A stretch of DNA of 30,093 nt from a virus. Taxonomy: Duplodnaviria > Heunggongvirae > Uroviricota > Caudoviricetes. The position numbers and the translations under genes were made by a program. The notes under the pieces were generated by a model. That model saw nothing but the letters and a program-made list of their open reading frames with translations, ran no database searches and was not told the origin of the DNA. Every line of letters starts with the position of its first letter. The first letter of the stretch is position 1. The stretch lies in IMG/VR virus record IMGVR_UViG_2562617113_000015, positions 1 to 30,093 of that record. The stretch is one strand, 5' to 3'. Of the stretch, positions 6,607 through 13,713 are shown piece by piece.

Positions 6607-7374
6607 ATGATGATCAATAAACAAAAAATAGTCAACCCTGAAAACTTGCCAGTTATTGAGTGGCAGGGAGTACGTGTAGTTACCACCGAAACGTTGGCGG
6701 CGGGATATGGAACAACGCCAATCCGTATACAACAGAACTACATTCGAAACGAAGATCGTTTCGTTGAGGGTAAACACTTTTTCAAAATCAGCGGTGATGA
6801 GCTGAAATCTTTCCGACTATCTTTTAGCGAGTCGGTTAATAAACATACAACATCACTTGTCCTCTGGACAGAACGCGGCGCTGCCCGCATGTCAAAAATC
6901 GTCGATACAGACGAGGCCTGGTCGTTCTTCGAAAAAATGGAGCAGGCGTATTTTCGTAAAGCAACGCCTTCTTCAAACACTATTCCAGACTTTGACGATC
7001 CGATCGCTGCTGCTGAAGCGTGGATTGAAGCCAAAAAATCCGAACGCCTTGCTCTCGGGTATGCAGAGCGTCAGGCTCGCTACATCAGCAAACTCGAAAG
7101 CCATCTCGCCGATGGCATCACTCCTGTGCAGTTCTGCAAACAACTCAACGGTGTAAACACTCGTCAGATTAATGCGTTCCTTGAAGAGCGTAACTGGCTG
7201 TATGACGACCGTCCGGAGGCTATGTATCCGCGCTGGCGTGTAAAAGCGTATGCACGTGACCAATACCTGACTGAGCGTTCTGGGCAGGTTGAGCAGGAAA
7301 ACGGGGAAATGCGCGAGATTTTCAAACCACTCCTGAAGAAAAAAGGTGCCCCTGGTTATATCGCCATTATCTGA
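6607..7374 (+). CDS. Antirepressor-family protein (255 aa), ORF6N-like N-terminal domain plus Ant-like C-terminal domain
   Basis: AAGGGG RBS; motif LWTERGAARM shared with the 13225..13713 gene (ILWTERGAARHAKM); C-terminal region resembles phage antirepressor C-terminal domains. Confidence 0.8.
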   Translation: MMINKQKIVNPENLPVIEWQGVRVVTTETLAAGYGTTPIRIQQNYIRNEDRFVEGKHFFKISGDELKSFRLSFSESVNKHTTSLVLWTERGAARMSKIVDTDEAWSFFEKMEQAYFRKATPSSNTIPDFDDPIAAAEAWIEAKKSERLALGYAERQARYISKLESHLADGITPVQFCKQLNGVNTRQINAFLEERNWLYDDRPEAMYPRWRVKAYARDQYLTERSGQVEQENGEMREIFKPLLKKKGAPGYIAII

Positions 7375-7459
7375 ACGGTGAACTACCGATGAAGAAAACA
7401 TGGGATGGGCTGTTTACCCATAACACTGAGCTCGCGAATCTTTTACAGGAGAACAAATA

Positions 7460-7669
7460 ATGCAAACCAAGACGTGTGTAACTGGTGATGTCGATCTGAA
7501 ACCTTGCCCGTTCTGCGGAAATCCGGAAGTACAACTCATTGAGGTGAAATATTTTCTGGATGGCGATGATGGTTATTACGTCGCATGTACTTGCTGTAAC
7601 GCAAACCAGATCCCTGATTCGAAAGAACGTGCTGTTCATGACTGGAATCAGCGCGAAAACGCGGATTGA
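7460..7669 (+). CDS. lar: Lar-family restriction-alleviation-like zinc-ribbon protein (69 aa)
   Basis: CPFCG ... CTCC cysteine pairs and size fit the Lar family as remembered; AGGAG RBS. Confidence 0.6.
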   Translation: MQTKTCVTGDVDLKPCPFCGNPEVQLIEVKYFLDGDDGYYVACTCCNANQIPDSKERAVHDWNQRENAD

Positions 7670-7705
7670 TGGCGAGTAGGTACAAAATGATCCGCAACCA
7701 ACATA

Positions 7706-7734
7706 TTGATTCTGCAATTTCGGGACGTTACACT
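7706..7734 (+). promoter_or_regulatory. Sigma70-type promoter (TTGATT-N17-TACACT) driving the leader upstream of the Rha gene
   Basis: Sequence match read by eye; predicted start near 7741, immediately before a hairpin and conserved box A. Confidence 0.45.
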
Positions 7735-7740
7735 GTTCCG

Positions 7741-7945
7741 GCACCTTATAAAGCGGGTGCCGGGATTGGCGTCCTGAAATTCAATATAGAGCATAACCGC
7801 GCTCATGCGGTTTTTTCGTGTCATGAGCATTGCTACGCCCAAATTATGGTGGGGCGTGCAGGGGCATCGCAAGATGCGCCGGGTTCTATGTTGACCGGTT
7901 ACGCCAACCCTGTACGTCTCACCACCTCTGTGATTGGCGTCCCAT
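7741..7945 (+). ncRNA. Structured leader or antisense-type regulatory RNA module (P1 c4-like architecture), copy 1
   Basis: Box A GGGATTGGCGTCC (7762-7774), hairpin plus T6 (7796-7816), box B GGTTACGCCAACCC (7897-7910, complementary to A), box C GATTGGCGTCCC (7932-7943, a second A-like copy) about 40 nt before the Rha ATG; the whole module recurs at 13001-13190. Confidence 0.4.
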
Positions 7946-7983
7946 GTGGTGAGTTCTTTGAATTCAACATAGGGGCTGTCACC

Positions 7984-8547
7984 ATGACTACTCTCCCAAC
8001 CCTCTCTCAACCTGAAATTGCGATCGTTGATGGTCAGGCTGTTACATCTTCTTTGGCTGTTGCTGACTTCTTCTCTAAACGTCATGACGATGTTCTGAAA
8101 AAGATCCGCATTTTGGATTGTTCTCCAGAGTTTTGTGCCCGCAATTTTGCGGAGACATCAATTTTGGTACACCAGCCCAACGGCGGTACTCGCAAACTTC
8201 CTTGCTACCACATCACCCGCGATGGCTTCGCGTTCCTGGCAATGGGCTTTACTGGCAAACGTGCAGCCCGGTTCAAAGAGGCATACATCAACGCCTTTAA
8301 CCAGATGGAGAAGAATTTATCTGGTGCTGACGCGGTTGATATGTCAGCTGTTGCACGAAACGCCAGAGGCGTATACCTGCATTTGCGTGAAATCCATCAA
8401 ATCTGGATAAGCCAGCTTTATCCAATGCTTAAGGCCGTTGAGTCACCGCTGGCTGGCAAACTGTACGACCGTGTAGGTGATGCTGTTTTTGGTGCTGCAC
8501 TTGTTGATTCCAGACTGAATGGTTCTGACAAGGAGGTGCGCCCATGA
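7984..8547 (+). CDS. rha: Rha-family phage regulatory protein (about 187 aa)
   Basis: Start at MTTLPTL with an upstream AGGGG; the in-frame upstream extension to 7666 is interpreted as RNA leader, not coding. Confidence 0.75.
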   Translation: MTTLPTLSQPEIAIVDGQAVTSSLAVADFFSKRHDDVLKKIRILDCSPEFCARNFAETSILVHQPNGGTRKLPCYHITRDGFAFLAMGFTGKRAARFKEAYINAFNQMEKNLSGADAVDMSAVARNARGVYLHLREIHQIWISQLYPMLKAVESPLAGKLYDRVGDAVFGAALVDSRLNGSDKEVRP

Positions 8548-11961: not shown

Positions 11962-12204
11962 ATGACTTTTACCCCTGAACAATTACGCAAACAGGCGCAG
12001 GAAATGCTGCGACAGGCGGAACAACTGGAAAAATCAGGCGTAACAAAAGATGCCATTCGTCGGGATATGGTACCCGCGCTCAGAGAACTGATGCAGGCAA
12101 AACACCGCGCACAAAAAGCGGTGGATGAGCTGGTGGATTGTGTGGCAGAGCTGGAAACAAAAGTTGGAAAATTTGAAAAATTGGTGCAGGGGGTACTGCG
12201 TTGA
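11962..12204 (+). CDS. Hypothetical coiled-coil protein (about 80 aa)
   Basis: ORF in the Nin region; ATG at 11962 chosen over the track's TTG at 11947. Confidence 0.5.
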   Translation: MTFTPEQLRKQAQEMLRQAEQLEKSGVTKDAIRRDMVPALRELMQAKHRAQKAVDELVDCVAELETKVGKFEKLVQGVLR

Positions 12205-12575
12205 TGCGCTTAGAGTGTGTTTTACCTTACCCACCGACGGTGAACACCTACTGGCGTCGTCGTGGCAGCACATATTTTGTATCAAAAGCAGGGGAGCGTT
12301 ATCGCCGGGATGTGGCGCTTATTGTTCGCCAGCAGCGACTGAAATTAAACCTGTCCGGAAGGCTGGCAATAAAAATTATTGCAGAGCCGCCGGATAAGCG
12401 CCGTCGTGACCTGGACAATATTCTGAAAGCACCACTGGATGCGCTGACGCATGCCGGACTACTTATAGACGACGAGCAGTTTGATGAAATCAATATTGTG
12501 CGCGGACTGCCTGTTCCTGGTGGGCGGTTGGGCGTGAAGATTTACGAAATTACAGGTGATAACGATGGTGCGTGA
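12204..12575 (+). CDS. rusA: RusA-family Holliday-junction resolvase
   Basis: [22 protein letters not shown] and LxDDxQ motifs match RusA as remembered. Confidence 0.85.
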
Positions 12576-12951
12576 TATTCAGCAGGTTATGGAGCGGTGG
12601 GGATCATGGGCTGCGAACAATCACGAAGATGTGTCATGGGCGTCAATCGCTGCTGGTTTTAAAGGATTAATCCCGCCGAAAGTGAAATCACGCCCTCAGT
12701 GTTCTGATGATGATGCAATGATAATTTGTGGCTGTATGGCCCGGTTGAACAAGAAAAATCAGGATTTGCACGATTTGTTGGTGGATTATTACGTAGGTGG
12801 AATGACTTTTATGGGGTTGGCACGAAAGCATGGGTGTTCGGATACCTGTATTGGCAAGCGCCTGCAGAAAGCGGAAGGGGTTATTGATGGCATGTTGATG
12901 ATGCTTGATATCCGACTGGAGATGGACAGATACGTAGAACGAATCATGTAG
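12565..12951 (+). CDS. Q: Late-gene antiterminator Q-like protein (about 128 aa)
   Basis: Small protein immediately upstream of a strong promoter plus short terminated leader; cysteine cluster and C-terminal helical region fit small Q proteins; assignment from memory. Confidence 0.6.
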
Positions 12952-12964
12952 GAGCTTGACCAGA

Positions 12965-12994
12965 CACATTGTCCGGGGCTATATTCCTCACGCG
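12965..12994 (+). promoter_or_regulatory. Strong sigma70 promoter (TTGACC-N18-TATATT) in the PR' position downstream of Q
   Basis: Sequence match read by eye; followed by a short leader ending in a hairpin plus T-run at 13046-13066. Confidence 0.5.
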
Positions 12995-13000
12995 CCAGCA

Positions 13001-13190
13001 AAATCTGGCGTCGGGATTGGCGTCCCGGATGAAAAAGGCGACAACAGACGCGCCAGCGTCTTTTTTATTGTCGTTTGCACTGTCACATCTCAATGGTGGG
13101 CTGTGTGGGGGCGGAGCGATCCGCGCCGGTTCCTTTTTCCCGGTTACGCCAACCCTGCACAGTTCACCACCATACTGATTGGCGTCAGCA
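13001..13190 (+). ncRNA. Structured leader or antisense-type regulatory RNA module, copy 2 (possibly doubling as the PR'/tR' leader)
   Basis: Box A GGGATTGGCGTCCC (13013-13026), hairpin AGACGC-GCCA-GCGTCT plus T6 (13046-13066), box B GGTTACGCCAACCC (13142-13155), box C TGATTGGCGTC (13176-13186) about 40 nt before the ORF6N ATG. Confidence 0.4.
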
Positions 13191-13224
13191 GTGGTGATGA
13201 TTCACATAGAAAAAGGATCATCCT

Positions 13225-13713
13225 ATGGCTATTCAAATCTCAGTTGAAACTCTTTCCCCGATCACCCATAACCAAATCCCTGTCATTACTACCGAGCTTT
13301 TGGCACAACTTTATGGCACCGAAACTAATAACATCAAAGTGAACTATACACGCAATGCCGAGCGTTTTGTTTGTGGGAAACACTACTTCAAATTGGAAGG
13401 GGCTGAGTTGCGGGAATTTAAGAACAAGGTTACTCAAAGTAACTTAGTTGCACCGCGTACAAAGCACCTCATCCTCTGGACAGAACGCGGAGCAGCCCGT
13501 CACGCCAAAATGCTGGAAACCGATCAGGCGTGGGAAGTGTTCGAAAAACTGGAAGACTGTTATTTCAGCCAAAAACAACCACCAGCAGCACAAAACACCC
13601 CAACCCAAAATGATGGATGCGCATTACTGATCCACTTCGATAAACACGGTCAGGTCGACTTCACGGAAAAACTACCCGCCGATGCGATGGTATGCACTCT
13701 GGAACGGTTTTAA
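13225..13713 (+). CDS. ORF6N-domain antirepressor-like protein (162 aa)
   Basis: AAGGA RBS; N-terminal domain paralogous to the 6607..7374 gene (shared LWTERGAAR motif). Confidence 0.7.
   Translation: MAIQISVETLSPITHNQIPVITTELLAQLYGTETNNIKVNYTRNAERFVCGKHYFKLEGAELREFKNKVTQSNLVAPRTKHLILWTERGAARHAKMLETDQAWEVFEKLEDCYFSQKQPPAAQNTPTQNDGCALLIHFDKHGQVDFTEKLPADAMVCTLERF

Follow-up and report, generated by a model that had tools for sequence, protein, structure and literature searches.

The immI switch of phages P1 and P7, known since 1990, is among the closest described relatives of the elements reported here. Its P1 record annotates a promoter (P1c4), the sites a1 and b1, a 77-nt C4 RNA, the sites a2 and b2, the open reading frame (ORF) icd and the genes ant1/ant2, and Ant1 is annotated as forming a complex with C1. 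C4 RNAs have a family structure of a long closing stem, two hairpins and a single-stranded junction; in P1 usage the single-stranded junction element 3' of the second hairpin is called a' and the loop of that hairpin b'. Between P1 and P7, a' and b' differ at two positions each, and every one of these substitutions is compensated in a1, a2, b1 and b2. C4 is matured from the operon transcript by RNase P. In this paper we analyse three antirepressor-type genes, two of them behind C4 modules, in the early and regulatory half of an Escherichia coli lambdoid prophage (IMG/VR record IMGVR_UViG_2562617113_000015, positions 1 to 30,093; "the window" denotes this whole stretch of 30,093 nucleotides).

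A second counterpart, antQ-isrK-orf45(STnc1160)-anrP, has been dissected in prophage Gifsy-1. There, the isrK promoter drives transcription of anrP in a long transcript that is translationally silent, the short IsrK RNA turns on anrP translation in trans, and expression of AnrP raises the transcripts of the antQ operon and induces the prophage (Hershko-Shalev et al. 2016, PMC4825925). The compensatory mutations described for this locus, G28A/C162U and G31A/C159U (PMC4825925), would fall in a1 and a' according to our own mapping. A different control logic is found in Fels-1, where the cleavable repressor of that prophage itself controls FsoA, a protein that Fels-1 does not need for its induction and that acts only on the Gifsy-2 repressor (Lemire et al. 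2011, PMC3121763).

In P22 immI (ant, sar, arc, mnt), in N15 anti-immunity and in P4 (CI RNA, seqA/seqC), antirepressor or replication genes are likewise kept silent by a small RNA, processed or antisense, of the same transcription unit, as is proposed for the cassettes described below. P22, however, employs a true cis-antisense RNA together with protein repressors, and P4 acts by transcription termination instead of occluding a ribosome-binding site. Anti-immunity in N15 acts by transcription termination, and the antirepressors of 186 (Tum) and N15 are LexA-controlled.

The window quite probably contains one ungated Ant gene with ORF6N and KilAC domains in the CI-repressed operon, and two self-contained switches of the P1/P7 immI and Gifsy-1 isrK type with different payloads. 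This reading draws on the domains of the three proteins, on matches to RNA families, on complementarities and their co-variation (34-37 loop types and eight junction types in about 130 related modules), on the alignment of promoters and on orthology with the Gifsy-1 locus. The switch design is already known and common, and the window is a further instance of it.

The three genes and the two RNA cassettes

The genes on which the argument turns are the following.

5407..6096, minus strand: CI-type repressor with helix-turn-helix (HTH) and S24 peptidase domains (Pfam Peptidase_S24, E=4e-17; HTH_3), probable cognate target, which also controls the early-right operon
6230..6373, plus strand: cro, frameshifted (alignment with locus L001, a prophage of strain E21845/O/A)
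6607..7374, plus strand: antirepressor-type gene 1, ORF6N and KilAC/ANT domains (Pfam)
7984..8547, plus strand: antirepressor-type gene 2, Rha family, payload of cassette A (Pfam Phage_pRha)
12556..12951, plus strand: antiterminator Q (Pfam Phage_antitermQ, E=5.6e-52)
13225..13713, plus strand: antirepressor-type gene 3, AnrP homologue with ORF6N domain, payload of cassette B (Pfam ORF6N)

All three antirepressor-type ORFs are present where the original prediction, a reading of the letters alone, had placed antirepressor-family genes, and its domain assignments are upheld by Pfam profile searches. The product of gene 1 (255 aa) has an ORF6N domain at residues 16-98 (E=1.3e-20), followed by a KilAC/ANT domain that stays below threshold (E=4e-4; 21.1 bits vs a cut-off of 25.3), while an intact relative of 286 aa reaches 28.9 bits and thus exceeds the cut-off. 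Gene 2 encodes a Phage_pRha protein of 187 aa (E=4.2e-27), and gene 3 an ORF6N protein of 162 aa (E=1.2e-21). The shared N-terminal domain that had been proposed for the first and third proteins is borne out by 45% identity over 129 aa (E=1e-35). The N-domains of all three map to one segment of PHROG 63, 'anti-repressor Ant', and are therefore distantly homologous. The C-terminal parts differ: the KilAC domain of gene 1 also occurs in P1 Ant1, whereas the gated payloads (genes 2 and 3) have a Rha or ORF6N domain and no KilAC.

Genes 2 and 3 each follow a complete RNA module. Cassette A has these parts:

7706..7734, plus strand: promoter, -35 TTGATT (7706-7711), 17-nt spacer, -10 TACACT (7729-7734), aligned with P1 P1c4
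7741..7817, plus strand: leader RNA, IsrK type (Rfam isrK, 61.9 bits), with a1 TTGGCGT (7766-7772), b1 TCAATATAGAGC (7781-7792) and an intrinsic terminator (7795-7817)
7842..7929, plus strand: C4 antisense RNA (Rfam C4, 80.1 bits, E=2e-14), with loop element b' GUUCUAUGUUGA (7883-7894) and junction element a' ACGCCAA (7901-7907)
7934..7975, plus strand: C4 targets in the Rha mRNA, a2 TTGGCGT (7934-7940) and b2 TCAACATAGGG (7964-7974)

The corresponding parts of cassette B are:

12956..12985, plus strand: promoter, -35 TTGACC, 18-nt spacer, -10 TATATT (10/12 to consensus), aligning with P1 P1c4
12979..13066, plus strand: leader RNA, c4-a1b1 / IsrK (Rfam isrK, 79.4 bits; c4-a1b1, 52.2 bits), with a1 TTGGCGT (13017-13023), b1 GAAAAAGG (13031-13038) and a terminator (13046-13066)
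13089..13174, plus strand: C4 antisense RNA (Rfam C4, 74.0 bits), with loop element b' UUCCUUUUUC (13130-13139) and junction element a' ACGCCAA (13146-13152)
13179..13217, plus strand: C4 targets, a2 TTGGCGT (13179-13185) and b2 GAAAAAGGA (13209-13217), the latter overlapping the Shine-Dalgarno sequence AAGGA of gene 3

Both C4 RNAs exceed the gathering score of the C4 family RF01695 (45), isrK (RF01394) is above gathering in both cassettes, and c4-a1b1 (RF03163) is so in cassette B only; a conserved RNA module in front of two of the genes, as originally predicted, is thus confirmed. The predicted folds of C4-A (-46 kcal/mol) and C4-B (-43.5 kcal/mol) reproduce the family structure. The promoter of cassette A matches P1c4 (-35 TTGACC, -10 TATAGT) column for column and is kept in all Rha-type modules; it is missing from the list of a generic promoter scan because it agrees with the consensus at only 8/12 positions. 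Its b2 site TCAACATAGGG can pair with the loop over 11 nt without a break, at the conserved offset, and overlaps the Shine-Dalgarno sequence AGGGG (7971-7975) of rha. RNA gate, promoter and target sites are intact in both cassettes. The Rha gene, whose homologues behind other C4 modules measure 181-188 aa, is intact too and is the sole full-length gene of the three; the ORF at 7666-8547 is an over-extension of it through the RNA genes.

The two cassettes have the same a' element, ACGCCAA, but unrelated b' loops, and the computed loop-target duplexes are stronger within than between them (A: cognate -16.0 vs -11.6 kcal/mol; B: cognate -11.5 vs -8.1 kcal/mol). Because the loops are unrelated, the cassettes are probably gated separately; this is likely and not certain, since the heteroimmune pair P1/P7 differs in both elements. 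The expectation that the genes would be differently controlled therefore agrees with the arrangement in the window, where gene 1 lies in the CI operon and genes 2 and 3 each possess a promoter, leader, C4 RNA and targets of their own, with unrelated loops.

Likeness to P1/P7 immI extends over the entire module. The order of promoter, a1/b1 leader with terminator, C4 RNA, a2/b2 and payload is the same, the promoters, leader terminators and C4 RNA can be aligned in register, the loop pairs beside or over a ribosome-binding site, and specificity resides in two short co-varying elements. The window cassettes are unlike immI in that their payloads are of the Rha and ORF6N types without the KilAC domain of P1 Ant1, in that no C1-type operator is evident at their promoters, and in that two cassettes occur in one lambdoid prophage vs one in a plasmid prophage.

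Cassette B also has the order of Gifsy-1, i.e. Q, c4-a1b1/isrK, C4 and an ORF6N gene, with matches to the same Rfam families; the stop codon of Q lies at 12951 and the cassette promoter begins at 12956. Gifsy-1 AnrP (STM2616, 187 aa, ORF6N) is 60% identical to the product of gene 3 over 164 aligned positions (E=3e-65). Given the shared order and this homology, cassette B is the counterpart of the Gifsy-1 locus. There are differences nonetheless: the window Q is 933W/BP-4795-like (about 80% identity) and that of Gifsy-1 phage-82-like, the window payload is without its last ~24 residues and is not followed by isrJ, the window repressor is of the cleavable S24 type while Gifsy repressors are not cleaved (PMC3121763), and Gifsy-1 has nothing equivalent to cassette A, whose Rha payload is placed within the early operon.

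The flanks of cassette B indicate how it arrived. The window Q is 82% identical to that of BP-4795, but this homology ends at 12926 and returns only downstream of gene 3, in the following remnant:

13731..13814, plus strand: remnant of a 933W/BP-4795-type Q 3' end with its terminator (13789-13810), 82% identical to the Q end and terminator of BP-4795

Cassette B is therefore a ~0.8-kb insert (12927-13730). The last ~8 codons of Q derive from it and give Q a new C-terminus, and its right end cut the payload, so that the truncation of gene 3 coincides with the recombination junction. The cassette promoter is the sole plus-strand consensus sigma-70 promoter between the stop codon of Q and the holin gene (~14949); a 933W-type post-Q promoter region is absent from the window, and no isrK-like sequence follows Q in BP-4795. 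With lower probability, the cassette promoter could double as the Q-responsive late promoter (PR'); IsrK would then correspond to the 6S RNA of lambda.

What these features mean for regulation, for the targets of the proteins and for whether the shortened genes 1 and 3 still work is a matter of inference. Each cassette would be transcribed from its own sigma-70 promoter, and most transcripts would end at the leader terminator to yield a short IsrK-type RNA that carries a1 and b1 as decoy sites. Read-through transcripts would hold the C4 RNA and the payload mRNA, and C4 would pair through a' and b' with a2 and b2 of that mRNA. As b2 covers the Shine-Dalgarno sequence, we propose that the payload remains untranslated while C4 is in excess, and that the leader decoy may titrate C4 and tip the switch on. 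Each payload would probably be gated mainly by its own C4, and the payloads would be expected to counteract a CI-type repressor, either that of the same prophage or that of another, and so to favour lytic development.

Gene 1 is placed after cro in the CI-controlled early-right operon and has no RNA gate. The promoter scan gave no promoter between cro and the start of gene 1, and no LexA box (CTGT-N8-ACAG, at most one mismatch) was found near 6400-6607, 7690-7740 or 12950-12990; LexA control, which had been raised for checking upstream of 6607, thus finds no support at any of the three genes. With neither promoter nor LexA box between cro and gene 1, the gene should be made only upon inactivation of CI. 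The CI translation contains GDSM and VKRL motifs alongside the S24 peptidase domain, i.e. it is of the self-cleaving type, and SOS induction should therefore need no antirepressor. In its control logic (expression only after cleavage of the prophage's own CI-like repressor, and no need of the product for own induction) gene 1 resembles Fels-1 fsoA. FsoA, GfoA, GfhA and GftA, by contrast, are small and unrelated proteins, and the latter three are under the control of LexA, for which the window has no box.

A strong intrinsic terminator with an 11-bp stem and a T run lies on the minus strand between cro and gene 1 (6583-6554) and points leftward. Just upstream of it a weak minus-strand promoter (6635-6607) overlaps the start codon of gene 1. 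An RNA of ~55 nt, antisense to the ribosome-binding site of gene 1 in the manner of P22 sar or lambda oop, could arise from the two. Rfam searches between cro and gene 1 at permissive E-values returned chance-level matches only, and no homologue of 6500-6680 was found in the phage collection; diverged homologues of gene 1 (Cronobacter ENT39118, Salmonella SPN3UB) occur in different gene contexts and were of no help on this region.

Variation and abundance of C4 modules

When IMG/VR was scanned for the conserved C4 core, 120 loci were obtained; together with other retrieved loci they yielded 137 C4 modules. These fall into 37 distinct loop types, and in 33/37 a complement of the loop is found downstream, at a fixed offset over the Shine-Dalgarno sequence. 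Across the 37 types the mean contiguous complement between loop and downstream site is 9.5 nt in cognate vs 6.3 nt in non-cognate combinations, and that between loop and leader site 8.5 vs 6.4 nt. The eight junction types, a sample biased to ACGCCAA because this motif was in the search pattern, have a mean cognate complement of 7.0 nt at both target sites vs 4.9 and 5.5 nt in non-cognate combinations. Altogether 41 loop/junction combinations occur among the surveyed modules. The conserved 3' tail CACCACC(A/U) is the only processing-related feature visible in the C4 RNAs of the window.

The RNA region of cassette A was matched in 2357/5426 complete E. coli genomes (at least 43%), with no more than six locations in any one genome. 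The payloads encoded behind some 130 modules comprise Rha (33), ORF6N (31) and Bro-N (14) proteins, small ORFs of 63-84 aa (about 33) and a few others, with 10 loop types for Rha and 8 for ORF6N. Rha-family proteins are the commonest payload of C4 switches, with a putative role as antirepressors. Among the ORF6N-type cassettes, 25/33 sit behind a Q-type or Dam-like gene: a Gifsy-type Q in 8, a window-type Q in 3 and a Dam-like gene in 9, while the upstream ORF of 5 further cassettes is read as Q-like. In phage PhiR49_2 a Dam-like gene follows directly after Q.

Ten loci hold two or three modules, often in tandem and about 650-870 bp apart. The closest complete relative of the window, the E21845/O/A prophage L001 (97% query coverage, 98% identity), carries a tandem pair of Rha-type cassettes that agree in their loop but have different junctions, ACGCCAA and UUCUCAC, each with matching targets, whereas the window has one. 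The window joins the RNA of the first L001 cassette to the Rha gene of the second, with the crossover in the shared b2/ribosome-binding region, and by this comparison looks like a recombinant between the two. No co-resident cassettes share both elements (0/14 pairs); since 0.65 would be expected by chance, this is not significant.

Tandem arrays were seen in L001 (5448-6288), L024, L045, L054, L093 and L119; each of their cassettes has a short or full Rha-type gene, and members of one array are distinguished by their junction element, by their loop or by the two together. A further observation concerns d95, a C4-gated protein from IMG/VR that combines a Rha-type N-domain with a C-domain otherwise typical of AnrP-like ORF6N proteins; this C-domain is 83% identical over 47 residues to the window protein at 13225-13713. 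The combination implies that N- and C-domains of C4-gated payloads are shuffled. A relationship of AnrP to the Rha protein was considered as well and rejected on comparison.

Reading the three genes

Several points weigh against the interpretation of the window as an ungated Ant gene with two immI/isrK-type switches. The window cassettes have no icd-like coupling ORF; b2 lies over the payload's own Shine-Dalgarno sequence, with the start codon of the payload right after it, while about 33 other surveyed modules do have a first ORF of 63-84 aa. The two published models do not coincide in detail: in the P1 model C4 represses and the role of a1/b1 is unclear, whereas that for Gifsy-1 has IsrK as an activator, by way of alternative structures and the upstream orf45. 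The orf45 frame is not conserved across modules; in cassette A the corresponding frame continues into rha without a change of phase, and that of cassette B has 34 codons (ATG at 13093, stop at 13197). Some cross-repression between cassettes A and B through their shared a' is possible. The Rha- and ORF6N-type N-domains are predicted DNA-binding domains. Finally, since two of the genes (1 and 3) are truncated and CI cleaves itself, none of the three is needed for SOS induction.

The term antirepressor has to be qualified accordingly for each gene. It is supported directly for gene 3 only, by its 60% identity to AnrP (PMC4825925); gene 1 has the KilAC domain in common with P1 Ant1, which is biochemically defined, and for the Rha protein the role is suggested by context.

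More tentatively, the two elements might constitute a combinatorial (a' x b') address system, by which separately gated payloads could be stacked, also in tandem arrays (L001, L024, L119), and could reassort at the junction of b2 and ribosome-binding site. Were this speculative extension correct, polylysogenic E. coli would have an addressable network of anti-immunity genes. The survey itself reveals the diversity of the two specificity elements and that several differently addressed cassettes can share one prophage.

Of the rival explanations, cross-talk in trans, which the original prediction had suggested, fares best, although we regard it as doubtful. The three proteins would then act mainly on the repressors of co-resident or superinfected prophages and form an arsenal released under different conditions. 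The self-cleaving resident CI, which needs no antirepressor, is in accord with this, and Fels-1 FsoA offers an exact regulatory precedent for gene 1 (PMC3121763). P1/P7 immI is a heteroimmunity determinant, the 41 loop/junction combinations would fit selection for distinct immunity types, and the modules, up to six per genome, are found in no fewer than 43% of the complete genomes of E. coli. Against cross-talk stands that no target can be identified from the window and that AnrP induces its own prophage (PMC4825925). The HTH of CI has 36% identity with its equivalent in GfoR, the Gifsy-1 repressor and a reported target of Gifsy antirepressors, and the cognate CI is therefore a plausible candidate target too. 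The absence of a full shared code from the 14 co-resident pairs lacks significance, and the reading is weakened further because gene 1 and cro are frameshifted and gene 3 has lost its last ~24 residues.

These lesions lead to a second rival, namely that in this prophage copy the set consists largely of non-functional remnants and that its multiplicity stems from mosaic recombination. In cro, a 1-bp insertion near 6330 shortens the product to 47 aa vs 99 aa in L001. In gene 1, a 1-bp deletion at 7350/7351 leaves 255 aa vs 286 in a 99.6%-identical relative, by which the last ~31 residues and the end of the KilAC domain are lost. The product of gene 3 ends at ...CTLERF, where its homologues of 184-193 aa continue with KFYLEQ(Q/H)GWIVARKEQL(L/V)ERLM.., so that ~24 conserved residues are missing; in a RefSeq relative the gene is flagged incomplete and annotated as a pseudogene. 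The recombination junction at the end of gene 3, which left the remnant of the Q 3' end, and the single Rha cassette vs two tandem ones in L001 point in the same direction. On the other hand, neither cassette has lost its RNA gate, promoter or target sites, and the Rha gene is of full length. Both shortened alleles persist in the population: exact copies of the 162-aa protein of gene 3 were counted on at least 1000 contigs, and of the 255-aa product of gene 1 on 14. The exact 47-aa Cro is on record for a single contig, of E. coli O157:H43 str. T22, so that this genome or one nearly identical to it is the probable source of the window. The frameshift of cro reflects a sequencing error or else an inactivation peculiar to this strain, by which lytic growth would be crippled. 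General decay of the set thus appears improbable.

It is similarly unlikely that the Rha-, ORF6N- and Roi-type proteins are DNA-binding lytic regulators or host-interference factors with a label inherited from annotation: the Rha protein is tied to antirepressors by domain-level similarity only, its PHROG families bear the name 'transcriptional regulator', one relative of gene 1 is annotated as Roi, a DNA-binding protein, and rha of P22/phi80 and roi of HK022 were defined through growth in IHF-deficient hosts and not through repressor binding, but the place behind the C4 gate is that of P1 ant and of the prophage-inducing anrP of Gifsy-1, the KilAC domain of gene 1 is common to P1 Ant1 with its annotated C1 complex, and the three N-domains align on PHROG 63.

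We thus retain the reading of one ungated Ant gene and two C4-gated cassettes. To a switch that has been described in P1/P7 and Gifsy-1 and is present in nearly half of the complete E. coli genomes it adds little. It does link the literatures on the 'IsrK sRNA' (small RNA) and on P1 c4 for lambdoid and Stx-type prophages of E. coli, whose induction matters for toxin release.

Annotation and surroundings of the cassettes

In such prophages, annotation routinely mistakes the RNA genes for proteins of the 'ash family' or for over-long ones of the 'Rha family'. The Pfam family PF10554 ('Ash protein family') matches translated isrK-C4 modules, in the window at 7666-7983 and 12956-13342 (E=5.7e-11 and 4e-6). 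The ORF at 12956-13342 and the gene that follows are in different reading frames; the counterparts in L001 are at 5394-6053 and 6050-6895. RefSeq coding sequences called 'ash family protein', and over-long 'Rha family' ones, accordingly run across RNA genes. PHROG 821 has the same ~143-aa N-terminal extension, and PF10554 appears to model translated RNA genes, at least in these modules.

The window runs from the integrase to the lysis and morphogenesis genes and is a mosaic, parts of which are common in E. coli as well as in phages of the Stx and phiP27 types. Its remaining features are:

1-1314, minus strand: integrase
4808-5260, minus strand: HTH protein
7460-7669: lar

The HTH protein at 4808-5260 was considered as a GfoR-like non-cleavable repressor and rejected, its similarity being marginal (E=0.001). 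Between the Rha gene and Q lie the replication genes (O-like, DnaC-like and DnaB-like), followed by rusA. On the 3' side of gene 3 there is a low-GC ORF without assignment, and then the holin (~14949) and endolysin genes. The segment between cassette B and the lysis genes (13877-14538) has a GC content of about 0.42 and two ORFs of 164 and 86 aa, neither with a Pfam match. It is probably a moron; the annotation of L001 has a 247-aa helix-turn-helix protein at the corresponding place, and the moron is possibly split in the window copy.

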